A stretch of DNA of 64,000 bases from a virus: positions 1 through 64,000 of IMG/VR virus record IMGVR_UViG_3300046314_000148, one strand, 5' to 3'. A program made the position numbers and the translations under genes. A model generated the notes under the pieces. It was given only the letters and a program-made list of their open reading frames with translations, made no database searches and was not told the origin of the DNA. Below are positions 39,317 through 56,536 of this stretch, one piece after another (the first letter of the stretch is position 1; each line of letters starts with the position of its first letter).

Positions 39317-39505
39317 ATGAGCACAGATGAAAAAAATGTAAGACAAGAAGTCTGGGAATGGCTTCAGGTGGGCATAGATAAGGGCTGGGTTACCGAGCCT
39401 TTCTGCTACACACATGACGGAGATCCGTACATGTCCGAAGAAGAAGAAAAAGAATGGGAAGACGGCGGAGACCCGTGTGCCCCAGTAATCAAAATTCTAG
39501 CATAG
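39317..39505 (+). CDS. Small acidic phage protein
   Basis: WLQVGIDKGWV...FCYTHDG...GGDPC. Confidence 0.65.
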   Translation: MSTDEKNVRQEVWEWLQVGIDKGWVTEPFCYTHDGDPYMSEEEEKEWEDGGDPCAPVIKILA

Positions 39506-39516
39506 AAAATAAGGGT

Positions 39517-41023: not shown

Positions 41024-41869
41024 ATGAACCAAGCGGTATTCACGTCATTTGACGAAAACTACTCTGACTATGCATTGGTAATGGTCAAGACATTTTGTGA
41101 AAATTATCACGGAGACCCTATAGATCTTTATTGCCTAGTCCCAGAAGACATCCAGCAGCTGCAGCAGGAATACATTGAAAAGTGTGGGAACCCAAATAAT
41201 GTTGTCATTCGTTTCGTAACTCTAGAGAAGCAGAAGCAGATTCAGGATAGGTTCTCTGACGATGATGTGTCTATATCCTACATTACGCTACAATGCTTTC
41301 ATCGAATATTTATTGCAGACTCGTTTCCAGATCTAGATGTTGCTATCTATATAGATCCAGATACAATCATTCTTAGAGATGTTCAGTCGCTGATAGATTA
41401 TCCATTAGCCTCTGTCATAGCTGCAAGATCGGAGAGCATAGATGACCACAAGATTTCTGTAGTTGGTGTGGACGGCATTTACTTTAACAATGGGGTATAT
41501 AAGACAGACTTAAATTTCTGGAGGTCAGAGCAGTTGGCAGATAAAATGCTCGATAGGCTTACTACTCATGGGATAACCCTGTATCCAGAACAAGACCTAA
41601 TGAATATCTTCCTAGCAGGCCACGTAGCAGAGCTGCCAATCAACTTTAACTTTTCATCTTGGCTAAGCACTATTGGATTTTTTAGTCACACGGTACCAAA
41701 CCCAATGATTCTGCACTTTGCAGGACCAGACAAGCCATGGAAAAACCATAGCCTGGAAAAGAATTGGACAGCTATCTGGAGAAGCAAATACGAAGAAATT
41801 TTTGGGGATAAGGCAGAGCATATCAAGGACTTTGAAAATCTTTACACATACGACATGGGGGACAAGTAA
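41024..41869 (+). CDS. Glycosyltransferase family 8
   Basis: IYIDPD, YFNNGV, PEQDLMN, ILHFAGPDKPW. Confidence 0.9.
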   Translation: MNQAVFTSFDENYSDYALVMVKTFCENYHGDPIDLYCLVPEDIQQLQQEYIEKCGNPNNVVIRFVTLEKQKQIQDRFSDDDVSISYITLQCFHRIFIADSFPDLDVAIYIDPDTIILRDVQSLIDYPLASVIAARSESIDDHKISVVGVDGIYFNNGVYKTDLNFWRSEQLADKMLDRLTTHGITLYPEQDLMNIFLAGHVAELPINFNFSSWLSTIGFFSHTVPNPMILHFAGPDKPWKNHSLEKNWTAIWRSKYEEIFGDKAEHIKDFENLYTYDMGDK

Positions 41870-42549
41870 TGGATAAGCCAGACATAACCACTAAAGAGGT
41901 AGGAAACTTTGGTATATGGTACGACACTATTGATCCAAACTTTACAGAGATATCTAGGATGTCAAATATTCCCCACCACTGGTTATCTTTTCAGGAAGTC
42001 CTTGCAGGTCCATATTCCGAATCAGTAATTAAACCAATAAACAAATATGTTCAAAGACTGGTTCCTCCGCCAACCCTAGTCAGTATATCAGATGGCCAGA
42101 TACGCCTCCGCCAGGGTAACCATGCAGAATTTTTTCTTTTGGAAAGCAGTGACGGAACCTTCACCCATAGAGATAGACCATGGCAGAGACAATACTATAA
42201 CACTAGCCAGGACGGTATCGTAGCTCCAGACAATACCTTTGAGACAGCATTTAAGTTCTATGTTCCATGGATTTTAGATGAGAACGTTCATGTAAAGATA
42301 GAGCAGGTCGATGGAAGTCCATTTACAATCTTGCCTACGGAGTTTAACTACTACAAAGTTCCCGAGCAGATCCAAAACATAGAGCCAAAGTTTGTCACTT
42401 TTTTCTTTAATCGTGTTGGCACCCACATGGTGTCCGACACCTTTGGGAAGATACCAAGACAGTCCCCAATGTTTGACATGGTTTTTTCTGCAAATGGTAT
42501 ACTTATAGATAAAGTTAGGAATTTTTATGAAGAAGCAGAACGTAATTAA
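41869..42549 (+). CDS. Hypothetical protein, distant relative of the next two genes
   Basis: FKFYVPW...SPFTILP...KIPRQSPMFDM echoes the downstream paralogs. Confidence 0.5.
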   Translation: MDKPDITTKEVGNFGIWYDTIDPNFTEISRMSNIPHHWLSFQEVLAGPYSESVIKPINKYVQRLVPPPTLVSISDGQIRLRQGNHAEFFLLESSDGTFTHRDRPWQRQYYNTSQDGIVAPDNTFETAFKFYVPWILDENVHVKIEQVDGSPFTILPTEFNYYKVPEQIQNIEPKFVTFFFNRVGTHMVSDTFGKIPRQSPMFDMVFSANGILIDKVRNFYEEAERN

Positions 42550-43261
42550 GTTTTATCCACTAAACGATAAGACAGCAGAGTTTTCCCCAGAGCCTAAGCC
42601 AGGGTCTAGGGCCTTACCAGAGTGGTACAAGCAGCAGCCAGGAAGCGTAGATAATGGAGAGCTTCTTGCACAGTTCGGTCAGCCTGCCAGCACGGTAAAG
42701 AAGTGCTTGCCAATATTTGACGTTATCACAGCTGGATATATCATAGTTGCCCCACTAGACATCTACATTGACGCAACCGATCCAGATAAGCTTAGTTATC
42801 AGATTCCAGCTGCAATGACTTTGTTTAAGGGGGATATCTTTGCAACTCACGATAGAAAGCAGTATGCAAACATGCCTATGGAGTCTGACCTATACCACCA
42901 AGACTTGCTGAGGATAATGCCATTTTGGATTGCATCAACTCCCCCAGGATTTAGTGCTCTGTTCCTAGACCCACTACACAAGGACCCAACTCCGCTGACA
43001 GCACTGCCAGGACTAATCGACACCGATGGCTACCCATCAGATGGGCATCTATCGTTTAAGGTTCAGAAGGGATTCAAGGGCGTAATCAAGCAGGGCACAC
43101 CTCTAGTCCAGGTTATTCCATTTAGAAGAGAAGACTGGAAGATGGAAGTCGTCGATGCATCAGAGTCTGAGTCATTCCTAAAGAGGCACAGAATGAATCT
43201 TAGAAGCACTTTTAATAATGGTTACAAGAATAAGTTTAGATCTCCCAAGGAATATAAGTGA
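42527..43261 (+). CDS. DUF6065-like protein (dUTPase-like fold)
   Basis: LPEWYK, TVKKCLPIFD..TAGY, TPPGFS, GLIDTD, IKQGTPLVQVIPFRR. Confidence 0.65.
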   Translation: MKKQNVIKFYPLNDKTAEFSPEPKPGSRALPEWYKQQPGSVDNGELLAQFGQPASTVKKCLPIFDVITAGYIIVAPLDIYIDATDPDKLSYQIPAAMTLFKGDIFATHDRKQYANMPMESDLYHQDLLRIMPFWIASTPPGFSALFLDPLHKDPTPLTALPGLIDTDGYPSDGHLSFKVQKGFKGVIKQGTPLVQVIPFRREDWKMEVVDASESESFLKRHRMNLRSTFNNGYKNKFRSPKEYK

Positions 43262-44037
43262 GCAATGAGCCACTCAAAATTAAATTTATTCCTCCGCACC
43301 AGCAGAGAGAAGATGGTTCTGGACCCAACTTTCCACCAGAGCCAGCAGTAAGGCATGTCCCAGAATGGTATCGTGCTCTCGCAAGATTCGATAAATCTAA
43401 TAACGACATCACTCTTAATCCTAAAAACAACATAGGCACCGATGGTGCCCAGGTATCTACAAAGATGTGCATGCCATACTTTGATGCCCTTACTGCAGGG
43501 TATAACTATTGCCTAGAGGATGACCTTTACGTCGATATGGATGAAGATGGCCACCCAATAATGTCCTGGGGTGGAGATGTTATGCTAGTGGATACTAGAC
43601 CAATCTTTGACGTACCTTTGCCAGATAACTGCCACCCAATACATTACGGTTGGAGAATGAACTGGTTCTACGAGACCCCACCAGGGTATTCTGTTCTTAT
43701 AACCCACCCGATGAATAGACATGATCTCCCGTTCTATACCCTATCTGGAATAGTGGAGTCTGACATTTGGGGGCTGCCAGTGTTTACGGCCTTTTTTCTT
43801 AAGAGAAATTTTCGTGGAATAATCCCAAAAGGAACTCCAATCTTTCAGATTATTCCGTTTAAGAGAGACAACTGGGAGCTAGAGGTTGATGATAGCCAAG
43901 AGGCTATTGACGAACACTGGTTCCGTGCAGAGAATAGACGGTCAATGCTTTATGGGTACTATAAGAAAATTGCCTGGAGAAAAAAGATTTTTGGAATTTT
44001 TGGGAAAAGGGAAAAAGAGGTAAACCACGATGACTAA
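43258..44037 (+). CDS. DUF6065-like protein (paralog of 42527-43261)
   Basis: VPEWYR, KMCMPYFDALTAGY, TPPGYS, GIVESD, IPKGTPIFQIIPFKR. Confidence 0.65.
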   Translation: MSNEPLKIKFIPPHQQREDGSGPNFPPEPAVRHVPEWYRALARFDKSNNDITLNPKNNIGTDGAQVSTKMCMPYFDALTAGYNYCLEDDLYVDMDEDGHPIMSWGGDVMLVDTRPIFDVPLPDNCHPIHYGWRMNWFYETPPGYSVLITHPMNRHDLPFYTLSGIVESDIWGLPVFTAFFLKRNFRGIIPKGTPIFQIIPFKRDNWELEVDDSQEAIDEHWFRAENRRSMLYGYYKKIAWRKKIFGIFGKREKEVNHDD

Positions 44038-44893
44038 TCTTCCTATAGCAATCATAGTCGTGGGCTATAAGGATAAGGGCATCCTAGATTTTGTAAAGCA
44101 CCTAAAGAGCGTTACTAGTTCTAAAAATATGGTGCTTGTCACCGATCAGCACCCACTAAAACACAAAGACGAGTTCTCGTCAGTAGATATGTGTAGCTAT
44201 GATCACGTTATCTGGGACTCAATAGATGGCCCAGCCAAGCATAGGTCAGAGAAGATATCTGATGCCGTATCATACGCAGATTATATCTGTATAGTTAGTC
44301 CAGACATATCCCTAAAGTATGGCTGGGACCTAGAATTGATCCATAAGATAGGCTCTGAACGCATAGTTCTATCTGGATCTGGAAGTATTTCTGTATCTAA
44401 CAAGGATATATTCTCGTTGTCACCCACATATACAGAATCTGAAGAATACAATACTACACAGTTTATAGATAGAAATTTCATATTTACAAAATCAGATGCA
44501 TTTTCAAAAATAGTCTTGCCAGACTTTCTTAAATATGACGGCGAGAATGAGTACCTGTCTCTAGCCATGCTATCAGCAGGATATGATATCGTCTCCGTAC
44601 CATCTGAAATCTATTCAGATTCACACATACGGTCCGTAGAGAATACCTACCATACCTTCTCGACAGAACACAACTACAACATCGTAGTGGATCTACTCAG
44701 CGGACTGGGGCTGACCGACTACGGAGTATCAGAAGAGGCACTATCAAAATTCTTAGACTTTCATGGCCTAGAGCTGGCTCCAGTTAAGAGGCTTCCTTAC
44801 TCGACAAATGATGTTATCTATGATCCATACAAGCTAAAGATGCATGGAGTCGATGCTCGCAGGTTCATTGCTGGCACAAAAGCAGTTTACTGA
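44030..44893 (+). CDS. GT-A glycosyltransferase, divergent GT60/GT2-like
   Basis: IIVVGYKD, DYICIVSPD...GWD.ELI, YDGENEYLSL..LSAGYDI. Confidence 0.55.
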   Translation: MTNLPIAIIVVGYKDKGILDFVKHLKSVTSSKNMVLVTDQHPLKHKDEFSSVDMCSYDHVIWDSIDGPAKHRSEKISDAVSYADYICIVSPDISLKYGWDLELIHKIGSERIVLSGSGSISVSNKDIFSLSPTYTESEEYNTTQFIDRNFIFTKSDAFSKIVLPDFLKYDGENEYLSLAMLSAGYDIVSVPSEIYSDSHIRSVENTYHTFSTEHNYNIVVDLLSGLGLTDYGVSEEALSKFLDFHGLELAPVKRLPYSTNDVIYDPYKLKMHGVDARRFIAGTKAVY

Positions 44894-44905
44894 TATAATA
44901 TTATT

Positions 44906-45505
44906 ATGCATAGAATAACCGTGATCGATAACTTTATTAGTCCAGAGGATGCAGCCATCCTAATGGAAGAGCAGGACAGGCCATCTGAGAGAAATCCCTA
45001 TCCAGAATATTATGCCAAAAGATTTGGTGGTACAGCCTTCCCTTATAATCAGCGTGTCATGGACATCCTGATAAAGTATGGACTGCTTTCAAACGATGTT
45101 CACAAAAAGGCTAATGGGTTTGTTAATCCAATATTTGTGTTTAAGAGCTTTGGCTCGGTATGGAAGCCAGTCAGCAAGGCTGGACTACACCTAGATGCCC
45201 AGGACCCAGAACCGTTTATTGAGTTCAGCACAATCATATACTTGAATAGCCCAGACGAATACGAGGGTGGGGTAATATATTTCCCAAACCAGGATTATGA
45301 ATATAAACCGAGACAATACTCTGCTGTTTTCTTTCCGTCAGCAGGCTCGGAATATATCCACGGAATAACATCAGTTACCAGTGGTACTAGAAGAACTGCT
45401 CTCTATATGCATACCAGTATCCCAGAGCATGCAGATCCAGATTTCCACTCGGCCGAGGAAACTGCAGTTTGGCAAGCTCAGACCCACCCAAACAACAAGA
45501 AGTAG
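44906..45505 (+). CDS. Prolyl-4-hydroxylase-like 2OG-Fe(II) oxygenase, leaderless
   Basis: LHLD, STIIYLN..YEGG..YFP, HGITSVTSGTR. Confidence 0.85.
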   Translation: MHRITVIDNFISPEDAAILMEEQDRPSERNPYPEYYAKRFGGTAFPYNQRVMDILIKYGLLSNDVHKKANGFVNPIFVFKSFGSVWKPVSKAGLHLDAQDPEPFIEFSTIIYLNSPDEYEGGVIYFPNQDYEYKPRQYSAVFFPSAGSEYIHGITSVTSGTRRTALYMHTSIPEHADPDFHSAEETAVWQAQTHPNNKK

Positions 45506-45512
45506 CCTAGAT

Positions 45513-46157
45513 ATGAATCACGAAATTCTTGATCTTGGCTTGGTGTACTATCGTGAAGTAATAGATAGTCCACAAACAATAATTGATTTAATCGAAGATG
45601 TTGATAGGCGGTTTAGGGCCAGTGAGCACGGAGCCAACGACACCATTGTGGCAGACTGGAAGCCTTGGACATACGATCACCTATTCTTTAATTATCAAAA
45701 GTTTTTCCCAGAGGCAGAGAATGTTCCAGCAAACGACTACTATGCAAAAGAGATGATAGAGATTGCAAATGCTCTATACCCGTCCCTGAATAAGGCATTT
45801 GATCACTACTCAAAGGTTGTCTATCCCTTCGCAGGAAGAAGTGTTAAGGCTAGAGAGTACAGCATCCATCTACTAAAATATGGAGTCGGTGGCCATCTCC
45901 CAGCTCACTCCGATCAGGGTATAAGTACTAGAGTTCTATCCTCAGTCATGTATCTGAACGATGACTACGAGGGTGGAGAGATCGAGTTTATAAATTCTGG
46001 GGTAAGGATTAAGCCGCAGGCTGGTAGCGTAATATTTTTTCCATCAAACTTCTTATATGTTCACGAGGTACATCCAATAACTGATGGCTTTAGGTATTCG
46101 ATGCCGCATTGGTATCACAATAGAAAAGATTTTATTGCATCAGACGGTACCGAGTAA
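45513..46157 (+). CDS. Prolyl-4-hydroxylase-like 2OG-Fe(II) oxygenase
   Basis: AHSD, SSVMYLNDDYEGGEIEF, HEVHPITDGFRY. Confidence 0.88.
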   Translation: MNHEILDLGLVYYREVIDSPQTIIDLIEDVDRRFRASEHGANDTIVADWKPWTYDHLFFNYQKFFPEAENVPANDYYAKEMIEIANALYPSLNKAFDHYSKVVYPFAGRSVKAREYSIHLLKYGVGGHLPAHSDQGISTRVLSSVMYLNDDYEGGEIEFINSGVRIKPQAGSVIFFPSNFLYVHEVHPITDGFRYSMPHWYHNRKDFIASDGTE

Positions 46158-46937
46158 CATCGGTTTAAAGTCTTTATAGACACTTCTCCACAGATCCGCA
46201 TAGATAGAGGCTGACTCGTCAGCCCAAGGCTTCTGATAGCCAGCAAAATGAACAATCAATGGGTCATCATATTCCTTAGCCATTAGCTTATTATTTCCAA
46301 TTATCCAGTCAAAGAAGTTAAAAGAGAATGGAAGTGGAGATAGGTGCTTAGCCAGAATGGCGTTTAGAGAGTCTTGTTCTGCAAATTGAGTGTCTGGGTT
46401 ATGTGTGATCCACTCGACTAGCTTATCTTCTATGCTGTTAGATCTCCAAAACTCTAAATCAGCTATAAATACACCAGAGTTAAAGCACGGGACATCAGAA
46501 TTATTAAATAAACGCTTGCTGTTATTGACAGTCTCCATTACCGCAAAGAATGTACCAGACCCAGAATAATCAAGTAGTGGCGAAATATCTCTAAGTATAA
46601 TTGTATCTGGGTCTATGTATATTGCAAAATCATATTCTGGGAAAAGTGAACCAATGAATATTCTTTGATAAGCATTGGGTGTAACGTGCTGAACCCCTCT
46701 GGCATACCCATCTTTGTCTAGCTTCAGAAACTTCTCAGATATCATAAACTTAATGCGTAGATTACCCTGAGCCACAGACATTCTATAGTCATCTTCTAGA
46801 TCCATGATTGATTCTGGAACTAGGCAGACGACATCTAGTGGGGCATCCCCATGGTAGTTCATACCCAATGACTTGATGGCTACACGAGAATACCCCATGT
46901 AGTTGCTGTCGAATGAGGTAACTACTACTTTTTTCAT
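46140..46937 (-). CDS. Glycosyltransferase family 8, leaderless
   Basis: IYIDPD, FNSGV, EQDSLN, VHFAGYQKPW; paralog of 41024-41869. Confidence 0.9.
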   Translation of the reverse strand: MKKVVVTSFDSNYMGYSRVAIKSLGMNYHGDAPLDVVCLVPESIMDLEDDYRMSVAQGNLRIKFMISEKFLKLDKDGYARGVQHVTPNAYQRIFIGSLFPEYDFAIYIDPDTIILRDISPLLDYSGSGTFFAVMETVNNSKRLFNNSDVPCFNSGVFIADLEFWRSNSIEDKLVEWITHNPDTQFAEQDSLNAILAKHLSPLPFSFNFFDWIIGNNKLMAKEYDDPLIVHFAGYQKPWADESASIYADLWRSVYKDFKPMLLGTV

Positions 46938-47035
46938 ACATCTATAATATCATGGTATGGTTTTGGTAAAAATTACTTTACTATTACCCCCCATTCTGAT
47001 ATAATTAAGCTAATATATAAAAGTAGGAGGCCACA

Positions 47036-47845
47036 ATGGCAAAAGCACAATTCCCAATAGACGGAAAGCTTGGAAAGGACTTTAAGGCAACTAGCCTTAT
47101 GGGTATGCGTATCCACCCAGTCACCAAGCAGAAGAAGCACCACAATGGTACCGACATCTGGTCACCACATGAGCCATGCTGGATCGAGGCACCTTACGAT
47201 GCAACAGTCCTAGAGGCAAAGAAGTCAACCTCCCCAGGCGGAGGGTTTGGAAACTATGTAATTCTTCTGCACAAGATTAATGGCAAGTTCTATACTACGC
47301 TTTATGCTCACATGCAGGATGGTTCGATAAAGGTTAAGAAGGGCCAGAAGATTACTGCTGGCACCCCACTTGGAAAGATGGGTACTACTGGCATGTCTAC
47401 TGGCAAGCACCTACACTGGGAGCTTCGTCTAGGCAAGGTCCACACTTGGGACGCAAACGGAAAGTTCTACATCGAGCCAATCGCATTCTTCAAGGCACTT
47501 ATTGCACAAGAGAAGATTATTGCAACCGCAGCAGACGTAGCAACAGATGACGATCCGATTGCAGAAGCACCAGAGCACAATGAAGCACAGGCAGCCAAGG
47601 TTGATGCAGTACTTGCAGAGAAGAAGGCAGTCGCAAAGCTTGTAAAGCCAGTCCTATCTGGTGAGCTAACCATTGGTTCAACTGGTGATGCTGTGAAGTA
47701 TCTTCAGGGCAAGCTTGGAGTTTCGGTAACTGGTGAATTTGATGAGGCAACTAAGCTTGCAGCAATTACATTCCAAAAGAAGCACAAGGAAATTACTAAG
47801 CCAGACGGCGTAGTGGGTCCACTATCTTGGAAGCTCTTGGGATAA
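47036..47845 (+). CDS. Endolysin: M23 peptidase + peptidoglycan-binding domain
   Basis: HNGTD, YAHM, STGKHLHWE; C-terminal GSTGDAVKYLQ...DGVVGPLSW. Confidence 0.9.
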   Translation: MAKAQFPIDGKLGKDFKATSLMGMRIHPVTKQKKHHNGTDIWSPHEPCWIEAPYDATVLEAKKSTSPGGGFGNYVILLHKINGKFYTTLYAHMQDGSIKVKKGQKITAGTPLGKMGTTGMSTGKHLHWELRLGKVHTWDANGKFYIEPIAFFKALIAQEKIIATAADVATDDDPIAEAPEHNEAQAAKVDAVLAEKKAVAKLVKPVLSGELTIGSTGDAVKYLQGKLGVSVTGEFDEATKLAAITFQKKHKEITKPDGVVGPLSWKLLG

Positions 47846-48048
47846 TGTCAGACTCTAAGAAGAAAACTTTTCTAAAAACAATTAGCTGGGAGACGTTTCA
47901 CCTTGTGGGTGTAGCAGGAGTAATCTACCTGTTTACTGGCGAATGGGAGTATGCAACCTGGGGAGCTCTTCTCTATATTGCATGGGAAGCTGTCGGATAT
48001 TTTGTTCACGAGCGATTGTGGACAAAGTTTGGAAAGAAAGTTAAGTAA
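47845..48048 (+). CDS. DUF2061-like membrane protein
   Basis: KTISWE...YFVHERLW. Confidence 0.7.
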   Translation: MSDSKKKTFLKTISWETFHLVGVAGVIYLFTGEWEYATWGALLYIAWEAVGYFVHERLWTKFGKKVK

Positions 48049-48224
48049 TGGCAACATATGAATATCAGTGCTTGGCATGTGAGACTAAGTTGTCTGTAAC
48101 TAGAAGCATATCTGATCCAGACCCTGGCTATTTCTGCGAGTCTTGTGGTAATAGGCTAAATAGGGTATACTCAATGAGTAACCCTGTTTTCAAGGGTAGT
48201 GGATTCTATAGAACGGATAAGTAG
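48048..48224 (+). CDS. FmdB-family zinc-ribbon protein (missing from the ORF track)
   Basis: MATYEYQCLAC...CESCG...VFKGSGFYRTD. Confidence 0.85.
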   Translation: MATYEYQCLACETKLSVTRSISDPDPGYFCESCGNRLNRVYSMSNPVFKGSGFYRTDK

Positions 48225-48457
48225 TGTCAGAGACAGTGGAGTGGGTACTCACTGCCAACGATCGTTGCGATAGTTGTGGAGCACAAGCGTATGTCCAGGT
48301 AACAGGAGTTACTGGAGACCTTGTGTTCTGCAACCATCACTATAACAAGATCATGGACAGTACCACGGGGTATGAAAAGATGATGAACTTTGCCTACAAC
48401 ATTCTTAACGAGAGAGAAAGACTTGTAGAGAATAGGTTAATAGGAAGCGACAGATGA
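48224..48457 (+). CDS. Small actinobacterial-type Zn-binding protein
   Basis: LTANDRCDSCGAQAYV...LVFCNHH. Confidence 0.7.
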   Translation: MSETVEWVLTANDRCDSCGAQAYVQVTGVTGDLVFCNHHYNKIMDSTTGYEKMMNFAYNILNERERLVENRLIGSDR

Positions 48458-49209
48458 TTATACAGATAATAGGACTACCAGGTAGTGGAAAGACCACCTT
48501 GGCTAAAGCTCTAAAGGAACGCACTAACGCTATCCACCTAAATGCAGACGAGGTACGTGCAGATATAAACTCTGACCTTGGATTTTCAGAGGCGGAAAGA
48601 GAAGAGCAGTCACGCAGACTGGGAGCAATGGCAAGGTTGTTGTCTAACCAGGGCTACGATGTGATTGTTGATTTTGTATGTCCTACTGCAGACACCAGAA
48701 CTGTTTTTGGTAGACCAGATATCCTTATTTGGATGAACACCATTAAGCAGGGAAGATTCCTAGATACAAACAAGTTGTGGCAAGATCCAGAGAATGCAGA
48801 CTACGTGTTCGAAGAGCAGATATCCGTAGATGACATGGCCTCTACAATCATAGAAGAGTTTGCACTTTTTGACTGGTCTGCACCAACGACACTAATGCTT
48901 GGAAGATACCAGCCATGGCACGAGGGCCACCAGATGCTCCGTGACCACGCTGCAGAACGAACAGATCAGATTCTAATTGGGGTTAGAAACACTTATAACA
49001 CTTCCGAAAAAGATCCATTGCCATACGACATGGTTGAAAAGCTTATTTATGATAAAAATTCTGGATATGTAAATCTTATTAAGAGGCTTCCAAACATTAC
49101 TAATATAGTTTACGGTCGTGATGTGGGGTACAAGATCGAGCAGATCGACTTGCCTGCTGAAATACAGGCCATCTCAGCTACTCAAAAACGTAAGGAGATG
49201 GGCATATGA
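48454..49209 (+). CDS. Adenylylsulfate kinase-like domain fused to an HxGH nucleotidyltransferase
   Basis: GLPGSGKTT, NADEVR...DLGFS...R; C-terminal GRYQPWHEGH. Confidence 0.8.
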   Translation: MIIQIIGLPGSGKTTLAKALKERTNAIHLNADEVRADINSDLGFSEAEREEQSRRLGAMARLLSNQGYDVIVDFVCPTADTRTVFGRPDILIWMNTIKQGRFLDTNKLWQDPENADYVFEEQISVDDMASTIIEEFALFDWSAPTTLMLGRYQPWHEGHQMLRDHAAERTDQILIGVRNTYNTSEKDPLPYDMVEKLIYDKNSGYVNLIKRLPNITNIVYGRDVGYKIEQIDLPAEIQAISATQKRKEMGI

Positions 49210-49415
49210 AAGAAACAAATAAAAGATCAATAGTCAAGGCGTTAACTTATAGATTTTGGCAAAGTCTAAACACATTCTTGATTTCTTTGGTTGTTACTGG
49301 TAAACTAGATATGGCTGCTGCTATTGTTAGTATTGAAGTTGTAGTAAAGATAGTTATTTACTTCTTCCATGAACGCATCTGGAGCAAAATTAAATGGGGT
49401 TTAAAAAATGTTTGA
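49206..49415 (+). CDS. DUF2061-like membrane protein
   Basis: RSIVKALTYR...YFFHERIWSKIKWG. Confidence 0.8.
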   Translation: MKETNKRSIVKALTYRFWQSLNTFLISLVVTGKLDMAAAIVSIEVVVKIVIYFFHERIWSKIKWGLKNV

Positions 49416-49812
49416 GTATTATGTAAAAGAAGTAACCAACGTAGTAGATGGAGATACCATTGACGTTGTAATCGATCTAGGGTTTGACATTAGCTTTAGT
49501 TCACGTGTTCGCCTGGCTGGTATTGATACCCCAGAGTCACGCACAACTGACAAGGCTGAGAAGGCCCTAGGCCTAGAGTCCAAGGAATATCTTAAGAAGG
49601 CCATCAAAGCTGCCAAGACTGTCGTAATCAAGACTGAGAAGATGGATTCCTCGGAGAAGTACGGTCGCATTCTTGGCTGGGTATATCTAGATGGATCTGG
49701 AAACTCTATCAATAACGAAATGATTGAGAAGGGCTACGCCTGGGGATACCTGGGTGACACCAAGGTAAAAGATTTTGATGCCCTAGCAAAGCAACGTGCA
49801 CTCCATAAGTAG
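49408..49812 (+). CDS. Thermonuclease (SNase-like)
   Basis: VVDGDTI, VRLAGIDTPE, KYGRILG. Confidence 0.9.
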   Translation: MFEYYVKEVTNVVDGDTIDVVIDLGFDISFSSRVRLAGIDTPESRTTDKAEKALGLESKEYLKKAIKAAKTVVIKTEKMDSSEKYGRILGWVYLDGSGNSINNEMIEKGYAWGYLGDTKVKDFDALAKQRALHK

Positions 49813-49824
49813 TATAATATATTT

Positions 49825-50262
49825 ATGGAATACGTTATAGGAGCAACGCTCACACTAATTACTGTTGCAGTCTGTAACATATTGCTTAGAAAAAATGTTT
49901 CTAGGTCTATAAAGGTAAACGTAAACTCTAGCCAGTCTAGAACATACCAGCTAATGAGACCATTAGTCTTCTTCGAAGACCTGCTTTCTTCTAAGCTAGA
50001 GCCGAGGATGCCAACACAAAGCAGTAGGCACCACGATAAGGTTCACGTCAAGGTTATCATTTCAGATACCGAAGCGTATTGGATTGCTAATAGTAAATTC
50101 TACGTTGCCGAGGTAAAAGACGAGATGATAGTTCAGGAAACAACCCGAGAGGTTGACACGATGGCCATGGATGATGTACAATTGAAAAAGATTATAGATA
50201 TCGTAGACATGTTAGGAGAAGAAAATGATCGTGGTAGTTCAGGGAACAAAGAGATTCGATGA
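49825..50262 (+). CDS. Hypothetical protein with an N-terminal TM segment, leaderless
   Basis: TATAAT-N6-ATG; hydrophobic N-terminus. Confidence 0.6.
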   Translation: MEYVIGATLTLITVAVCNILLRKNVSRSIKVNVNSSQSRTYQLMRPLVFFEDLLSSKLEPRMPTQSSRHHDKVHVKVIISDTEAYWIANSKFYVAEVKDEMIVQETTREVDTMAMDDVQLKKIIDIVDMLGEENDRGSSGNKEIR

Positions 50263-50575
50263 CTATTCAGTCTTCTTAACTGGCATGAGGTCTGCCCTAA
50301 TTAATCTAACAGACAATGATAAGTCATTCACAGTATTTAGTGCAGGACCAGCAAACATCAATGCTATGGCAATGGAGTTTGTGAATGTTACAGAGAGAAG
50401 CCTAAAGGCAAGAGGGATCAAGTCAAAGCTTGTCAAGGTTCCACCTAGCTGGATTGAAAATAATGTTGATGACATAGATCTGTTTGCATACTATGCATTG
50501 CCTAAAGAGCCAATTCCAGAGATGGTTACATCTGTAAGTAACAAAGGTGTAAACGTTCAGTTTTACAGATTTTAA
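50225..50575 (+). CDS. SLOG/YspA-like protein
   Basis: MIVVVQGTKRFDDY N-terminus. Confidence 0.45.
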   Translation: MIVVVQGTKRFDDYSVFLTGMRSALINLTDNDKSFTVFSAGPANINAMAMEFVNVTERSLKARGIKSKLVKVPPSWIENNVDDIDLFAYYALPKEPIPEMVTSVSNKGVNVQFYRF

Positions 50576-50650
50576 ATACTGACATAGAGGTATTTAAAAG
50601 TCCCGTAGATATTCGGGACACAAATAAACAAAATATAAGGAGAAGAGACG

Positions 50651-50863
50651 ATGAAAATCATTACGTCTCTAGAGCAAATGGACAAAATTGTCCGATCAGA
50701 AAAGTCTTTGCGTTGGAATGGCTGGGATGTAGAACATACAACCCCCAACCCAACTGCCTGGAGTAAGCCAAACGGTGTTTTTGTCAGGGGCAGATGGTAT
50801 GTGAAAGAAACATTTCCTATCACTGAGTCTGGGTGGGAGATCCCTGGCAAGTTTGTGAGGTAG
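50651..50863 (+). CDS. Hypothetical protein
   Basis: SD present; LRWNGWDV motif. Confidence 0.6.
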   Translation: MKIITSLEQMDKIVRSEKSLRWNGWDVEHTTPNPTAWSKPNGVFVRGRWYVKETFPITESGWEIPGKFVR

Positions 50864-50866
50864 CTC

Positions 50867-51157
50867 ATGGACATATCCAGAGATAAGTGGAAAGACGATG
50901 CCAAGTGCATTAAGTTTGACACAAATCTATTCTTCGATACATATGAAGAAGACCCAGAAATCAGAGCCGATGTAGATGAGATGTGCTTTGGCTGCCCCGT
51001 AGCAAGAAAATGTTTTGCTATCGGTGTTTCTCAGAAATCCTGGGGAGTATGGGGTGGCATATACTTGGAGGATGGCGAAATATCTAAAGAGTTTAACAGA
51101 CACAAGACAAAGGCTCAGTGGGGTAACACTTGGCAAAAGCTAACCAATGATAGATAG
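50867..51157 (+). CDS. whiB: WhiB-family transcription factor
   Basis: W...AKC, LFF, CFGCPVARKC, WGVWGG. Confidence 0.92.
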   Translation: MDISRDKWKDDAKCIKFDTNLFFDTYEEDPEIRADVDEMCFGCPVARKCFAIGVSQKSWGVWGGIYLEDGEISKEFNRHKTKAQWGNTWQKLTNDR

Positions 51158-51165
51158 GATGATTG

Positions 51166-51402
51166 ATGTATACAGACGCAATGAAAGTAGCATTCCATTC
51201 TATTCCAGCACCTAAAAACTTTGGAGTTCGCCTAGAAGACAATGACACGTTCCTAACCATTAGGGCAAAAGAAGACGTATTTATGAGACTATACGATGAC
51301 GAAAAGCGTCAGGCTGTGGAGTACATGATTCGACTGAAGAAGGCCCTAGAGGATAACGGAGCCATTGTGCTCATCGTTCGAGAAGGTGGCAAAGAAGAAT
51401 GA
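51166..51402 (+). CDS. Hypothetical phage protein
   Basis: ORF in the operon after whiB. Confidence 0.6.
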   Translation: MYTDAMKVAFHSIPAPKNFGVRLEDNDTFLTIRAKEDVFMRLYDDEKRQAVEYMIRLKKALEDNGAIVLIVREGGKEE

Positions 51403-51791
51403 TAAATTGGATAGATATTCTAGCCTTGATTCCGATGCTTGGATTAATATTTGTGGCATATCAGTATCTAGTCATAAAGAGACAAAACACGAATCTGGCA
51501 AAGATGTTTATGCAGTCTGAAGTAGACAAGAATCTACTTGGACAGCAGATCTTACAGATCAGAGAAGACAAGAGGCTGCTAGAGTCTGATGAGTTCATGA
51601 TGTTTTTAAACAATAGCCGTCAGGCAGCGTTTGACTACATCGAGGATGCACAGGCTGGAATTAAAAAGTTCGACGAGGATGTTCGTCTAATTCTTTTAGA
51701 AGAAAACTCATCTGCAGCCACGCTGGTAAAGATTCTAGAAGCTAATAAGCAGCTTCAAAAGCTATTGCCAGATAGTATAAATAAACAATAA
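51399..51791 (+). CDS. Membrane-anchored coiled-coil protein
   Basis: N-terminal TM; FLNNSRQAAFDYIE. Confidence 0.6.
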   Translation: MINWIDILALIPMLGLIFVAYQYLVIKRQNTNLAKMFMQSEVDKNLLGQQILQIREDKRLLESDEFMMFLNNSRQAAFDYIEDAQAGIKKFDEDVRLILLEENSSAATLVKILEANKQLQKLLPDSINKQ

Positions 51792-51801
51792 GGAGAAATA
51801 A

Positions 51802-52167
51802 ATGAATAAGCAACTAAAAGCAGCATCAGCATCGTACGCAAGATCAGTTCTTGCTGCAGCATCTGCCCTATACCTAGCTGGGGTAACTGACCCAGGACAG
51901 CTACTAAACGCACTAATCGCAGGTATCCTACCAGTAGCACTACGTGCATTAAACAAGAACGATCCAGCATTCGGTATAATCGAGAAGCTTGCACAGCCAC
52001 ACCTGGCAAAGCTATCGGATGGTGAGCCTGTAATCTCTAAGGAATATCTGGAGAAGAACAGGGAAGCCATCGAGAAGCTCGCTTCTGAATACCAGAAGGC
52101 TAGCAAGGCTCAGGCAGCTAAGGCAGCTGCTAAGCCAACCACTAAGCCAACACCGAAGAAGAAGTAA
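51802..52167 (+). CDS. Holin-like protein with a basic tail
   Basis: SYARSVLAAA...PVALRALN..DPAFG; strong SD. Confidence 0.65.
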   Translation: MNKQLKAASASYARSVLAAASALYLAGVTDPGQLLNALIAGILPVALRALNKNDPAFGIIEKLAQPHLAKLSDGEPVISKEYLEKNREAIEKLASEYQKASKAQAAKAAAKPTTKPTPKKK

Positions 52168-52183
52168 TTCTCTTAGTATAGAT

Positions 52184-52213
52184 AGGGGGGCCGCAGATGC
52201 GGTCCCTCTTTTC
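52184..52213 (+). terminator. Intrinsic terminator between convergent genes
   Basis: GGGGGGCCGC/GCGGTCCCTC stem + T-run. Confidence 0.75.
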
Positions 52214-52218
52214 TTATG

Positions 52219-52929
52219 CTAGTATACTATCCTATTGTCCCAGGCATAGCTCCAGGAGATTCTACCAAGGTCGCTAGACGAAGTATCTGGCCTCTTGCTG
52301 AAGTCCTTAAAGTTCGCTACGTGAGCCCCATCGTAATGATACTCTAGGGTGGTCTTGCCAGACTTGAGATCATCTATTGTGGTAAATGAACTGCCCATCT
52401 CCCCAATCCCGATCCTCTCCGTAGCCTGAGTGAACACCCTGCCCATCTGAGCAGTGCCACCTATGTATGCTGGGTCCTTGCCATACTCTCTAGCGTTATA
52501 TATGTTAGATAAGTTTATTATGCACTCTAGAATTTCTGGTTGTCTCGGCAGAGAATATATAACAGCATTCTGGATAATGCTTTTGTATTTAAATATCTTT
52601 TTTAGGGCATTGTCTCTAAATACGATGATGTCTTTTTCTAAAGCTATCTTATCTATAAATCTAATTCCCAGGTCAGAGTAGATGCCTCCATGAACATACA
52701 GGATGCACAGCCTGGCAAGGTCTGCCTTGTAAGCGTATGGCTTAACTGCATTGTAGGCCGTAAGGACAGATGGCCCAAAGTTGCTACTAATCAGATCCTT
52801 TATCATTCGGTCATCCCATATTCGGATATCCACACCCTGGGTGCTGGCAAAGGCCCCGATCTCATCTGAATATGTATCTAGATAAACATCTCGCATGGTT
52901 CCAAGGTATATAAGATGTCCTAGATTCAT
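52219..52929 (-). CDS. Glycosyltransferase family 32 (DXD sugar-binding), leaderless
   Basis: YAYKADLARLCILYVHGGIYSDL. Confidence 0.85.
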   Translation of the reverse strand: MNLGHLIYLGTMRDVYLDTYSDEIGAFASTQGVDIRIWDDRMIKDLISSNFGPSVLTAYNAVKPYAYKADLARLCILYVHGGIYSDLGIRFIDKIALEKDIIVFRDNALKKIFKYKSIIQNAVIYSLPRQPEILECIINLSNIYNAREYGKDPAYIGGTAQMGRVFTQATERIGIGEMGSSFTTIDDLKSGKTTLEYHYDGAHVANFKDFSKRPDTSSSDLGRISWSYAWDNRIVY

Positions 52930-52965
52930 GACTAAAGTATATCATAATGGTGATATACTAATACT

Positions 52966-53055
52966 GTCCCCCACATGGGCCTACGCTTAGGATGGATTAG
53001 TTACCTATTTATAAGACCGTGGCCATCGTGCTTGAATTGCCCGTGTGGGGGCTTT
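52966..53055 (+). ncRNA. Candidate ~90-nt small RNA with its own promoter
   Basis: TGATATACT-N6-G(+1); 13-bp terminal stem 52968-52980/53039-53051 followed by TTT. Confidence 0.65.
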
Positions 53056-53071
53056 ATGGTATACTTTTCAT

Positions 53072-53530
53072 ATGGAACAATTACTTATTCAGCTCAAGCA
53101 GCTACTGGCAGACAACATTGCCCTTGCATTTAAGGCACAGGGATACCACTGGAACGTAGAGAGCGACGATTTCCCACAGTTGCACGAATTCTTCGGAAAA
53201 ATATATGAAAACTTTGGTGGTGCAACAGACGGCTATGCAGAGTGGATGCGTATGCTTAAGGTCTACGCACCATATCGCCTAGTTGACTTCTTTGACCAGA
53301 CAACCGTAGGTGAGCCATATATTATCGGGGAGCCAGAGCCAATGCTCGCTGACCTATACACATCAATTGAAAAGCACATTGCAGATCTTGTCGTCGCAGG
53401 AAAGCTAGCTAACACATCTAGCGAATTCGGACTAGCAAACTTCTTTGCCGAGCGTCAGACAGCTTCTCAGAAGCTTTGCTGGCAACTACGTGCATCTATC
53501 GAGATAGAGGAACCAGACACCAATGAATAA
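53072..53530 (+). CDS. dps: Dps / ferritin-like protein, leaderless
   Basis: KAQGYHWNV...FPQLHEFF...D..AE; W.LRA. Confidence 0.88.
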   Translation: MEQLLIQLKQLLADNIALAFKAQGYHWNVESDDFPQLHEFFGKIYENFGGATDGYAEWMRMLKVYAPYRLVDFFDQTTVGEPYIIGEPEPMLADLYTSIEKHIADLVVAGKLANTSSEFGLANFFAERQTASQKLCWQLRASIEIEEPDTNE

Positions 53531-54068
53531 TGATTTAATCACAAAGCAATCACCTTGCTGGGACGGATACGTTCAGCGTGGCATGAAGCCAGGAGAAGGT
53601 GGGGCCATGGTTCCTAACTGCGTTCCTGCAGAAAAGGCAGACGACCTATTCGAAGACTCAGACGATGTCGAATACGATACAGACTCTATGGCAAAGGCCG
53701 AAGGCTATTCTCCTCCAGCTGGTGCAAGAGCAGCAGCACGTAGAGCTATCAAGTTTAAGGAAGATGGCAAGGCTAATGGGGCTGGAACATCTGTAGGCTG
53801 GACTCGTGCAGGGCAGCTGGCAAGAGGGGAGACCATCTCTCTTAGTACTGTTAAGCGTATGTACTCATACTTCTCACGCCACGAGGTAGACAAGAAGGGC
53901 AAGGACTGGGGAAACTCTGCTAACCCATCTAATGGATACATCATGTGGCTTGCCTGGGGTGGAGATGCAGGGTACTCTTGGTCACGTAAGATAGCCCAGA
54001 AGGCTTCGGACAAGGCCCTATTCTCTGACTTCGGCAAAGATTACACAAAGTCTTCTAAGATAGTTTAG
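53523..54068 (+). CDS. Phage protein, possibly head-associated
   Basis: CWDGY...VPNCVP motif plus GWTRAGQLA...VKRMYSYFSRH...WLAWGGDAG domain. Confidence 0.55.
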   Translation: MNNDLITKQSPCWDGYVQRGMKPGEGGAMVPNCVPAEKADDLFEDSDDVEYDTDSMAKAEGYSPPAGARAAARRAIKFKEDGKANGAGTSVGWTRAGQLARGETISLSTVKRMYSYFSRHEVDKKGKDWGNSANPSNGYIMWLAWGGDAGYSWSRKIAQKASDKALFSDFGKDYTKSSKIV

Positions 54069-54079
54069 GTAGCTATAGT

Positions 54080-55018
54080 ATGGGTCAGCCCACTATATTC
54101 ATAACCATACCAGCATACGAGGATCCTCAGCTCCTGGAGACCATAGAGGGGGCACTGGACAATGCCTTATATCCAGAAAGACTATTCTTTTGTATTGGTA
54201 TGCAATACAGAGTTCTGCCAGATATATCTAAATACCTAAGTAATCCAAATTTCAAATTTTTATTTTATGATGTAGATACTAGACCAGGTGTGTACCAGAT
54301 CAGAAAAGAGATGGCAGACGAGCACAGCGGCCAGGACTATTTTATGATGATCGACTCACACATGACATTTGTCAAGTATTGGGACTCTATGTTGGTAAAT
54401 GACTATAAAAATTTGGTGGCAACTCACGGAGAAAAGACCGTGATGTCTAAGCCAGTGACACACAAGATAGGCTTGACCCTAAACAATGGGCATATAAACG
54501 ATTATCCATGTTGGGAGATAAATCGCAATGTCAGCCCTAAAGAGATCAATAGGTTTTTAATTCCAGCAGTTCGCAACATCCCATGGAATGGTGATAGATT
54601 TATAAAGATATACTACGCCTGTAGCCATTTCTTTTTTACTAGCAAAAAGTTTCTAGAGGACCTTGGATTTTTCTCAGGTATAAGATTCTATTGCGAGGAA
54701 CTAATAACTAGCGTCCTAATTTACATATCTGGTTGGGACATATACATGAATCCATCTCATATATTAGTTGGCCACGATGATAAAAAAACCATGAGAAGCC
54801 TATACAATAGAGATAGCTACTCTCTGGCCGATGGCAAGACCTTTACGGCAATAGAAGATGACGGGGGTACCAAGTTGGAGATTGCAAGGTTTGTGCTAAC
54901 TGGAAAGTCTAAGCTCATAGATGTGAACGCTAGCAGATCAGTAGAAGATTATTACACGGTGTCTGGCCTAGCTGACGTATATCGTGAGCTAAAGGTCGAA
55001 AATCTAATATTAGATTAA
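54080..55018 (+). CDS. GT60-like (Skp1-hydroxyproline GlcNAc-transferase family) glycosyltransferase
   Basis: TIFITIPAYEDPQL..TI..A...A.YPERLFF; YFMMIDSHMTF...WD; FYCEE.......GWDIY. Confidence 0.78.
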   Translation: MGQPTIFITIPAYEDPQLLETIEGALDNALYPERLFFCIGMQYRVLPDISKYLSNPNFKFLFYDVDTRPGVYQIRKEMADEHSGQDYFMMIDSHMTFVKYWDSMLVNDYKNLVATHGEKTVMSKPVTHKIGLTLNNGHINDYPCWEINRNVSPKEINRFLIPAVRNIPWNGDRFIKIYYACSHFFFTSKKFLEDLGFFSGIRFYCEELITSVLIYISGWDIYMNPSHILVGHDDKKTMRSLYNRDSYSLADGKTFTAIEDDGGTKLEIARFVLTGKSKLIDVNASRSVEDYYTVSGLADVYRELKVENLILD

Positions 55019-55642: not shown

Positions 55643-56536
55643 ATGATACTAGTCACAGGTGGTGCAGGATTTATTGGATCCCATCTGGTCGATAAGCTAA
55701 TCAGTGATGGCTTCACCGTGCGAGTAATTGATAACGAGTCTGCCACAGAGAATGATGCCTTCTACTGGAACCCAGAGGCAGACAACCACAAGCTAGACGT
55801 GGCTAACTATGAAGCAACTAGGCATCTCTATGATGGAATAGAGGTTGTCTACCATCTGGCAGCAATCTCCAGAATACAGCCAGCAATTGCCAGCCCACAT
55901 TCTGTAGTAGAAACAAACATTGTTGGTACAGAAAATGTCCTTCGCTGTTCCGCAGAGGCAGGGGTGCAAAGGTTTGTATTCTCATCATCCTCATCTATTT
56001 ATGGTAATAACGATATTCCAAATGTGGAATCTCAGAATGCAGACTGCCTAAACGCATACTCATCAAGCAAGCTCTCTGGCGAGCTCATGTGCAATGCAAT
56101 GCATGGTGTATCTGGAATGGAAACAATCTCTCTTAGATTTTTTAATGTTTATGGTGAGCGTCAGCCGTTACGAGGTAAGTACGCAACAGTAATTGGCCTA
56201 TTCCTTCTCCAGGCCAAAAGAAATTTGCCGCTTACCATAGTGGGTGACGGGCATCAGACAAGAAGCTTTACTCATGTCTCGGATGTTGTAGATGCATGCT
56301 ACAGAGCAGGATTCTCTGTTCCCTGGGATGGGGCATTCGGGGATACCTATAACGTAGGCTATGAAACCTCGTACTCCATAAATGATGTTGCCAAAATGAT
56401 ATCAGATAACACTGCCAGCATCCCAGAAAGAATAGGGGAAGCTAGGCACACACTATCTGACTCCTCTAAGTTTAAGGATGTCTTTGGGTGGAAGCCAAAT
56501 GTATCTCTAGAGGATTGGGTAGCCCAGAATGTCTAA
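55643..56536 (+). CDS. NAD-dependent nucleotide-sugar epimerase/dehydratase
   Basis: VTGGAGFIGSH, HLAA, SSSSIYG, YSSSK, RFFNVYG. Confidence 0.93.
   Translation: MILVTGGAGFIGSHLVDKLISDGFTVRVIDNESATENDAFYWNPEADNHKLDVANYEATRHLYDGIEVVYHLAAISRIQPAIASPHSVVETNIVGTENVLRCSAEAGVQRFVFSSSSSIYGNNDIPNVESQNADCLNAYSSSKLSGELMCNAMHGVSGMETISLRFFNVYGERQPLRGKYATVIGLFLLQAKRNLPLTIVGDGHQTRSFTHVSDVVDACYRAGFSVPWDGAFGDTYNVGYETSYSINDVAKMISDNTASIPERIGEARHTLSDSSKFKDVFGWKPNVSLEDWVAQNV

Follow-up and report, generated by a model that had tools for sequence, protein, structure and literature searches.

We analysed a 64-kb window at the start of a viral record of 112,245 bp (IMG/VR IMGVR_UViG_3300046314_000148) that was rated complete by CheckV. 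Our subject is a group of prolyl 4-hydroxylase (P4H)-like oxygenases and GT60-like glycosyltransferases encoded between positions 41,024 and 55,018; coordinates beyond 64,000 lie in the same genome outside the window. The original prediction for this region was a hydroxyproline (Hyp) O-glycosylation pathway paralleling the Skp1 pathway of protists, and on Pfam assignment every gene family named in it was present where it had been placed. The core of the region (41024-46157) is a tightly packed seven-gene array in which neighbouring genes overlap or are separated by 7-12 nt. In order, the array contains a GT8 gene (GT8a, 41024-41869, + strand) whose stop overlaps the start of the next gene, the gene of a conserved unknown protein (unkA, 41869-42549, +), two DUF6065/phrog_7084 genes (42527-43261 and 43258-44037, both +), a divergent GT60/GT27-like gene (44030-44893, +; hereafter 44030) and two oxygenase genes, Oxy1 (44906-45505, +) and Oxy2 (45513-46157, +). 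A second GT8 gene (GT8b, 46140-46937) is on the - strand, and a GT60 gene (54080-55018, +; hereafter 54080) is found 8 kb further on, in a second hot spot behind a ferritin gene. Three whole related genomes (G001-G003) were compared with the phage, giving four whole genomes in all.

The prediction of two P4H-like oxygenases in the array was confirmed by matches to PF13640 (2OG-FeII_Oxy_3), with scores of 32.8 bits for Oxy1 and 62.4 bits for Oxy2 against a cut-off of 27; the likely start of Oxy2 is the ATG at 45513. Two further P4H-type 2-oxoglutarate (2OG)-Fe(II) oxygenases are encoded in the genome, namely a fourth enzyme (65673-66218) and Oxy3 (99787-100308), which is located within the tail-fibre module, and the two scores of 44.2 and 34.9 bits were also above the cut-off. 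Alignment of the oxygenase family revealed an invariant H-x-D...H...R signature, which consists of an iron triad (H132, D134 and H184) and a 2OG-binding arginine (R194). The nearest solved chain to Oxy1 was prolyl 3-hydroxylase 1 (P3H1), and Oxy2 matched the B. anthracis P4H at 7e-5. The profile of the phage oxygenases matched P3H1 (4e-11), the B. anthracis P4H (1e-8) and PKHD (2e-8), followed by weaker matches to a chlorovirus P4H (7.5e-5), PHD2 (~1e-4), a Tet-like enzyme (2.5e-4) and lysyl hydroxylase (1e-3); another detectable relative was PPHD (4iw3), a prolyl hydroxylase from bacteria. In this profile search, P3H1, the B. anthracis P4H and PKHD all outranked PHD2, and the phage enzymes were not placed in the PhyA/PHD subtype.

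The gene at 54080 had been put forward as a clear GT60 member, and this assignment holds. Its product matched PF11397 ('GlcNAc', GT60-family glycosyltransferase) with 63.4 bits against a cut-off of 21, and the gene was also recovered by a six-frame search of the genome. Additionally, the protein contains a D92-S-H94 motif, in which D92 and H94 were invariant across 29 homologues; D-x-H is the metal/nucleotide-sugar motif of the GT60 and GT27 families. Characterised GT60 members transfer alpha-GlcNAc from UDP-GlcNAc onto Hyp or Thr of polypeptides (PMC6939170), and 54080 is assigned to the family by sequence. Among GenBank phages, a relative of 54080 was detected only in Xanthomonas phage Xoo-sp13 (L033, 225561-226913; 24% identity), where it adjoins a carbamoyltransferase gene, and the same pairing was seen in relatives of the present phage.

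The product of 44030 had been predicted to be GT60/GT2-like. It can be described as a divergent GT60/GT27-like GT-A glycosyltransferase on the basis of its profile and fold, and this part of the prediction stood; a Pfam match and the D-x-H motif were both missing. The hhalign comparison of its family profile with that of 54080 gave a probability of 94% (E 9e-8). The AlphaFold model of 44030 (pLDDT 84) matched the GT27 enzymes ppGalNAc-T2, T4 and T12 in Foldseek (E 2e-10), with a TM of 0.6 for GalNAc-T2, and the closest viral models in BFVD were proteins named 'Glycosyltransferase, GlcNAc' (PF11397). One homologue of 44030, P0090, has a PF11397 match. A tblastn search of phages with 44030 gave no match, and profile searches of the PDB with 44030 and with the GT60 family gave no useful match. 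A GT60 profile scan of 185,579 species genomes gave no match with the patterns used, and likewise none was obtained in 14 control genomes.

Gene neighbourhoods and one domain fusion suggest that the two families work together, as the P4H-like oxygenases and the GT60-like TRANSFERASES appear to be functionally linked. The array from unkA through the two DUF6065 genes and 44030 to Oxy1 and Oxy2 is kept in at least eight related viral contigs, in which a 54080-type GT60 gene (48-54% identical) is located 0-2 genes after the oxygenases. In L008, this gene abuts Oxy1, and in the other contigs GT8b, or a carbamoyltransferase gene and an unknown gene, are found in between. As synteny extends over the whole of these genomes, little can be concluded from conserved gene order by itself, and greater weight is given to separate paralogue pairs found elsewhere. 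Such a pair is found in L026, where an Oxy2-like gene and the gene of a 331-aa GT60 protein are divergently arranged. In G001 (105332/105996) and in L028-L031, a 65673-type oxygenase gene is followed directly by the gene of a 312-aa GT60 protein, a paralogue that is missing beside the 65673 oxygenase gene of this phage. A GT60 gene also precedes an oxygenase gene by 35 nt in G010 (55651/56225). Across the four whole genomes, 5 of the 14 GT60-like genes adjoin an oxygenase gene, where 0.68 would be expected by chance (P 2.5e-4 by permutation, shared ancestry not corrected for), and a 44030-type gene adjoins Oxy1 in G000, G001 and G002.

The two families are also joined in a single metagenomic protein of 555 residues, P0254. 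Its GT60 domain (residues 1-324; A5 profile E 2e-104, PF11397 E 1.5e-22) is fused to a P4H-like oxygenase domain (residues 346-522; A7 profile E 4.8e-23), in which H-x-D...H...R is retained. In another protein, P0255, a GT60 domain is fused to a GT-B-like domain.

Candidate substrates were found in the tail-fibre module. Oxy3 lies behind the gene of a 240-aa FN3-like fibre-module protein (98168-98890), which is Ser/Thr-rich and has an aromatic repeat tail with four prolines, and a second protein with an aromatic/Pro repeat tail is encoded at 90633-90980. Both tails are composed of hydrophobic F-G-V-F-G-F units with occasional Pro and end in F-R. Orthologous tails elsewhere are formed by (PFF)n with up to 80 prolines, by Cys-rich ends or by Y/N/F repeats, and some orthologues end in a C-E-P-Y-D...H-N domain that is Hint/intein-like in appearance. 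G001 and G002 have tails with Pro and have Oxy3; G003 has a Y/N/F-repeat tail with zero proline, and Oxy1, Oxy2 and Oxy3 are all missing from it.

For a wider comparison, 80 loci of the fibre-module protein were taken from the more than 514 existing, and sufficient downstream DNA was available for 52 distinct tails. Thirteen of them had a Pro content of 25% or more, being (PFF)n tails with 21-80 prolines, and each of these 13 had 2-4 oxygenase genes within 4.5 kb. Among the 39 other tails, 19 had no oxygenase gene and 17 had one within this distance, and the two outliers with four oxygenase genes had 38-51 prolines. Over the 52 loci, oxygenase number was associated with the Pro content of the tail (Mann-Whitney P 2.6e-7, Spearman rho 0.50, phylogeny not corrected). 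The oxygenases at these loci were Oxy2-like and Oxy3-like in about equal numbers; in other phages, the genes of fibre-module proteins with (PFF)n tails have Oxy2-like genes as neighbours. There is thus good comparative evidence that the predicted role of the oxygenase family is to hydroxylate proline in fibre-module tails. Peptidyl proline had been proposed as the oxygenase substrate from the outset, and it is favoured by this association, which is comparative and uncorrected for phylogeny.

Between the tail protein gene and Oxy3, we also observed one to four tandem paralogues of a phrog_2696 protein (98932-99606 in this phage) with five invariant histidines, and the number of copies falls as oxygenase number rises (rho -0.39). 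The protein had no match in Pfam, in PDB profiles or, by hhalign, to the oxygenase profile.

Two other Pro-containing proteins were considered as substrates. A Pro-rich protein (16.8% Pro; 36860-38611, +) with hydrophobic N and C termini, placed at 36827 in the original prediction, had been named there as a possible carrier of the Hyp glycan. We judged this to be unlikely and rejected the protein as a conserved substrate because it is probably exported, in contrast to the cytoplasmic-looking enzymes, and because its Pro tracts are not conserved. A signal or membrane segment is lacking in all of the enzymes. The similarity of the Pro-rich protein to its homologues in G001, G002 and G004 is confined to ~100-150 residues at the C terminus. 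The G001 homologue lacks the Pro tracts, and no protein of G001 exceeds 8.4% Pro. The second protein is collagen-like (87838-88539) and has 13 G-X-Y triplets, including GPP, GLP, GVP and GPK. Collagen-like proteins with Pro or Lys at the Y position are encoded in all four whole genomes, including G003, and they are not orthologous; for these reasons, a role as the specific partner of the cassette was rejected. Collagen-like proteins are possible but unspecific substrates.

We propose that fibre-module proteins of the phage undergo prolyl hydroxylation in the cytoplasm and that, in this subclade, hydroxylation is coupled with glycosylation of the GT60 type and with variable extension of the glycan, a proposal to which we give about equal chances of being right and wrong. 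The oxygenases at 44906, 45513, 65673 and 99787 would hydroxylate prolines in phage structural proteins, the best candidates being the proteins at 98168-98890 and 90633-90980, with the collagen-like protein as a further possibility. The enzymes encoded by 44030 and 54080 would add the first sugar to the hydroxylated residue or to a nearby Ser/Thr, and we put forward Hyp as the site of sugar attachment only tentatively. The glycan would then be extended and tailored by the two GT8 enzymes, a GT32 enzyme, a GT4+CAP59-like fusion protein and the products of sulfation genes, with sugar nucleotides supplied partly by a phage GDP-mannose 4,6-dehydratase (Gmd), a sugar-nucleotide epimerase/dehydratase (SDR) and a short dehydrogenase, all of which are described below. 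We infer from the observations above that the hydroxylated residue would be proline, and the glycan acceptor, donor sugars and target proteins are likewise putative.

A wider proposal is that this would be the first prokaryotic or phage Hyp-linked O-glycosylation, in which a paired or fused P4H and GT60 act on aromatic/Pro tails, fast-evolving GT8, GT32, GT4 and tailoring genes diversify the glycan, and the pair represents an ancient mobile module held in common with the protist PhyA-Gnt1 step. We consider it possible rather than probable. No report of hydroxyproline glycosylation or of GT60 in phages was found in our literature searches.

Several observations weigh against a coupling of hydroxylation to GT60-type glycosylation. 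P0254 is a singleton on a 3,071-bp Logan contig, its oxygenase domain was not called by Pfam, and a second fusion copy of this type was not found in viral or metagenome contigs. In 44030, the canonical D-x-H is replaced at the aligned positions by S-P-D, of which P91 and D92 were invariant in 29 homologues. This gene is also linked to dUTPase-fold genes in all four whole genomes, and the G003 copy has no adjoining oxygenase gene. Many GT60-like paralogues in the four genomes are without an adjoining oxygenase gene, and G003 retains a GT60 gene and a 44030-like gene though its tail has zero proline. In addition, GT60 was absent within 5 kb at the fibre-module oxygenase loci, and any GT60 was present in only 4 of 30 larger related records, so hydroxylation does not generally imply glycosylation. 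These distributions suggest that predicted hydroxylation is widespread across this phage group and that its coupling to GT60 is a trait of this phage's subclade.

The same distributions would fit two independent systems, in which the oxygenases hydroxylate proline of fibre-module or collagen-like proteins without glycosylation, and the GT60-like, GT8 and GT32 enzymes build Ser/Thr O-glycans on virion proteins, comparable to the virion glycosylation of mycobacteriophages. Consistent with this alternative, fibre-module oxygenase arrays have no nearby GT60, most related records lack GT60, G003 retains GT60 genes without Oxy1-3 or tail proline, the fibre-module protein is Ser/Thr-rich, and the GT60 family also has Thr-directed enzymes, such as that forming trypanosome Thr-GlcNAc (PMC6939170). 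However, the adjacency of oxygenase and GT60 genes recurs in several independent paralogue pairs, and the two are fused in P0254. We therefore regard independent systems as rather unlikely, and we retain coupled hydroxylation and glycosylation of fibre-module proteins as the preferred reading.

The DUF6065 genes that share the array with 44030 encode paralogues, the first of which (42527-43261) matched phrog_7084 with an E value of 5e-42 and the second of which (43258-44037) gave an AlphaFold model with a pLDDT of 85. When the DUF6065 model was compared with solved structures using VIA-align, the top 22 chains all belonged to the dUTPase-fold group (dUTPases, dCTP deaminases and viral dUTPase-related proteins), with Z-scores of 9.2-5.0, compared with <3 for unrelated folds. 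At E <= 0.001, the DUF6065 family comprises 2,575 clusters. In haloviruses HF1/HF2 and cyanophage S-RIM4, homologues are encoded beside ribonucleotide reductase genes. The conserved stretches TAGY, G-I/L-V/I-D-T/S-D and G-T-P-x-x-Q look like dUTPase motifs I, III and IV, a likeness judged only by eye. PDB profile searches with DUF6065 gave no useful match, and the genome had no match to the canonical dUTPase family (PF00692). By these structural matches, the DUF6065 proteins have a dUTPase-superfamily fold; they probably serve nucleotide metabolism, feeding ThyX, rather than glycosylation, and possibly form a class of viral dUTPase-like enzymes that has gone unrecognised. The unkA protein is present in all four whole genomes and had no match in Pfam, PHROG or PDB profiles and no informative result in the ESM Atlas; in hhalign comparisons, it showed no relation to the oxygenase profile and only a weak similarity to the DUF6065 profile (probability 20%). 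Although unkA is part of the same array, a role in nucleotide metabolism is more likely for it.

The presence of two dUTPase-fold proteins in the operon-like array of 44030, together with a T4-type dNMP kinase and ThyX encoded nearby and a weak Tet_JBP match of Oxy2 (E 3e-4), raises the alternative of DNA hypermodification. In that case, the dUTPase-fold proteins would shape the nucleotide pool, the oxygenases would oxidise a base and the GT-A enzymes would glycosylate it, as in T-even glucosylation, TET-glycosyltransferase phage systems and base J. However, the oxygenases scored far better as P4H-type enzymes (62 versus 20 bits, and 1e-8 to 1e-11 for P3H/P4H versus 2.5e-4 for the Tet-like match), oxygenase number tracks the proline content of a protein, and the nearest characterised relatives of the transferases (GT60 and GT27) act on polypeptides. 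A ThyA-like hydroxymethylase was searched for and not found. Furthermore, the toolkit for several sugars, sulfation and carbamoylation is more elaborate than the mono- or disaccharide DNA modifications known to us. DNA hypermodification is accordingly very unlikely in our view, and modification of fibre-module proteins is preferred.

The remaining glycan genes of the region were largely as predicted. Both GT8 genes and the GT32 gene were verified by Pfam: GT8a and GT8b matched PF01501 with E values of 1.4e-31 and 1.4e-32, respectively, and the GT32-type gene (Gly_transf_sug, DXD; 52219-52929, -) matched PF04488 with an E value of 7.5e-10. The two GT8 proteins are paralogues with 39% identity. 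The nearest solved relatives of GT8a were the bacterial GT8 enzymes 3tzt, LgtC and GlyE (5gvv), the last of which glycosylates an adhesin, and no glycogenin or Gat1 chains were found at E <= 0.001 in the search of GT8 relatives. The GT32 gene is located in a variable hot spot and is present in L009, L022 and L026. Gmd (62159-63193, -) had also been predicted correctly, as its product matched TIGR01472 with 513.7 bits against an equivalog cut-off of 415 in NCBIfam.

For the predicted epimerase and UDP-sugar dehydrogenase, the families are present, and the details differ from the prediction. The former (55643-56536, +; PF01370 E 6e-53) is a generic NAD-dependent sugar-nucleotide epimerase/dehydratase of the SDR type, whose best NCBIfam match was GalE-like and below the cut-off, and the match to Fcl reached only 47 bits. 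The latter (56529-57284, +; PF00984 E 9e-17) is a short form of 251 aa that spans positions 79-273 of 413 in TIGR03026. This short form is also kept beside the SDR gene in L028 and L029 and is therefore probably not a broken gene.

Further genes extend this set. The product of 48454-49209 (+) has an APS-kinase-like P-loop domain (PF01583 E 3e-17) and a weaker nucleotidyltransferase-like region with a weak CTP_transf_like match; it matched TIGR00455 (E 2e-18) below the cut-off, and a role in sulfate activation is possible. A sulfotransferase-like protein is encoded at 60937-61464 (+; PF00685 E 6e-5, just above the cut-off), followed by a weak Stealth_CR2-like protein and possible hexose-1-phosphate transferase at 61461-62159 (-; PF11380 E 1.7e-4, below the cut-off). 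A 642-aa protein encoded at 63261-65189 (+), by a gene that starts in the window and runs past its end, is a fusion of a GT4-type GT-B domain (PF13692 E 1e-9) and a CAP59/Anp1-like (GT69-like) GT-A domain (PF11735 E 5e-11).

Many of these genes vary among relatives. None of G001-G003 has GT32, Gmd, the short dehydrogenase, the sulfation genes including 48454 or the GT4 fusion, and G002 also lacks GT8. The relatives instead encode a carbamoyltransferase, an NDP-hexose C-methyltransferase, O-methyltransferases and sulfotransferases. The variable tailoring genes fit a fast-changing surface glycan as their putative product.

This gene content could also be read as a means of remodelling host envelope glycans, such as teichoic-acid-like polymers, arabinogalactan or surface glycoproteins, in order to block superinfection or aid release. 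GT8a resembles GT8 enzymes of lipopolysaccharide and surface glycans, capsule and cell-wall loci typically contain genes of the Stealth-like, sulfotransferase and sugar-nucleotide kinds, and the high variability among relatives would also agree with it. We consider this reading unlikely, as the genes scanned revealed neither a membrane-bound transferase nor a flippase or polymerase, the phage looks lytic (DnaE and ribonucleotide reductase present, no integrase seen among the scanned proteins), and the hydroxylase linkage and the P0254 fusion would be left unexplained. Glycan extension on fibre-module proteins is the preferred reading.

The Skp1 pathway consists of PhyA (P4H), Gnt1 (GT60), PgtA (GT2+GT74), Glt1 (GT32) and Gat1 (GT8) (PMC6939170), and the original prediction held that the phage has nearly the same family set. 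As in Dictyostelium and Toxoplasma, the phage has a soluble PF11397/GT60 protein with D-x-H that is linked to a cytoplasmic P4H-type oxygenase, and it also encodes GT8-family and GT32-type genes and a GDP-sugar gene (Gmd). Beyond this, the claim of a shared set was not upheld. The phage has no Skp1 target; no GT74 match was obtained among the proteins scanned, which agrees with the initial impression that GT74 was missing; and no protein reached the GDP-fucose synthase cut-off of 500 bits, the best score being 47. The phage GT8 enzymes are of the LgtC/GlyE type and not glycogenin-like, and GT8 and GT32 vary among relatives; on these grounds, they were rejected as parallels of Gat1 and Glt1. 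Additionally, the phage oxygenases are no nearer to PHD/PhyA than to collagen-type P3H/P4H, and several hydroxylase and GT60 paralogues are present per phage genome, with virion fibre-module proteins as the likely targets. The likeness of the family sets is thus largely a coincidence.

A true analogue of Skp1 regulation would be a host takeover function, in which a host protein located in the cytoplasm, for instance one of the ribosome or a translation factor, undergoes hydroxylation-dependent glycosylation. The enzymes are cytoplasmic by their lack of signal and membrane segments, PPHD (4iw3) and PHD2 are detectable relatives of the oxygenases, and the genes are found among early/middle metabolic genes. 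However, the association of oxygenases with proline tails points at phage proteins, one oxygenase gene is inside the fibre module, and the rapid turnover of glycan genes suits a surface structure better than a regulatory mark. Host takeover therefore appears highly improbable, and the fibre-module proteins are retained as the preferred targets.

Among known systems, giant viruses offer a close comparison. Mimivirus L230 is a lysyl hydroxylase fused to a glycosyltransferase and acts on collagen-like proteins, and chlorovirus PBCV-1 has a prolyl 4-hydroxylase and virus-encoded capsid glycosylation; the chlorovirus chain matched by the phage oxygenase profile (PDB 5c5t) is this PBCV-1 P4H. In both cases, as proposed for the phage, virus-encoded 2OG hydroxylases and glycosyltransferases act on viral structural proteins in the cytoplasm. 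The hydroxylase-transferase fusion (P0254 compared with L230), virus-encoded Gmd and collagen-like proteins are further likenesses. In contrast, the phage host is bacterial, the transferase is GT60-like and not PLOD-type, the candidate phage substrates are aromatic/Pro repeat tails, and the order in P0254 is transferase followed by hydroxylase.

In bacteria and their phages, two systems are comparable. Mycobacteriophage glycosyltransferases reportedly glycosylate virions, in a 2023 Cell Host Microbe study attributed to Freeman and colleagues. The phage described here would likewise be an actinobacteriophage that decorates virion proteins with its own glycosyltransferases, and glycan genes are variable in both. 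We know of no hydroxylase or GT60 that takes part in the mycobacteriophage system, and the sites there differ in being of the Ser/Thr type on capsid and tail-tube subunits. B. anthracis has a small bacterial-type P4H (PDB 3itq/5hv0), matched by the phage oxygenases and among their closest solved relatives, and a glycosylated collagen-like protein of the exosporium, BclA; the presumed substrates in both systems are repeat-rich surface fibre proteins. BclA differs in that its glycans are on Thr; to our knowledge, no coupling of hydroxylation to glycosylation is known for it.

If the proposal is correct, glycosylation that depends on hydroxylation, until now associated with plants, algae, protists and giant viruses, would extend to viruses of bacteria. 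Virion surfaces would then be modified in a new way that matters for how hosts are recognised, for the stability of the particle and for shielding from immunity or enzymes, and the two enzymes, present once as a single fused protein, would offer a simple system for studying the recognition of Hyp by GT60. The origin of the protist PhyA-Gnt1 module could also be affected. In addition, the link between oxygenase arrays and (PFF)n tails provides a concrete candidate substrate for many unexplained '2OG-Fe(II) oxygenase' genes of aquatic phages.

The 112-kb record also encodes a 2,612-aa tape measure protein, DnaB, RecA, a large terminase, ribonucleotide reductase, ThyX and the T4-type dNMP kinase, and its DnaE-type polymerase has 56% identity to the enzymes of Streptomyces phages. 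With DnaE and ribonucleotide reductase present and no integrase seen among the scanned proteins, the phage looks like a lytic type. A megablast search of phage records with the region gave no match. A WhiB-like regulator is encoded at 50867-51157 and, like the similarity of DnaE to Streptomyces phage enzymes, indicates that the host is an actinobacterium. An M23 peptidase with a peptidoglycan-binding domain (47036-47845) and an NlpC/P60 peptidase (90973-91551) are markers of a Gram-positive/actinobacterial host. The G+C content of the phage DNA (42-47%), together with one relative recorded in a lake metagenome bin, suggests freshwater actinobacteria as the probable hosts. Finally, between the Pro-rich protein gene and the cassette, we found a gene (39454-40290) for a conserved exported protein of 278 aa, which has a signal peptide, an H-G-N-G motif and no Pfam match and which shows 80-91% identity in relatives.

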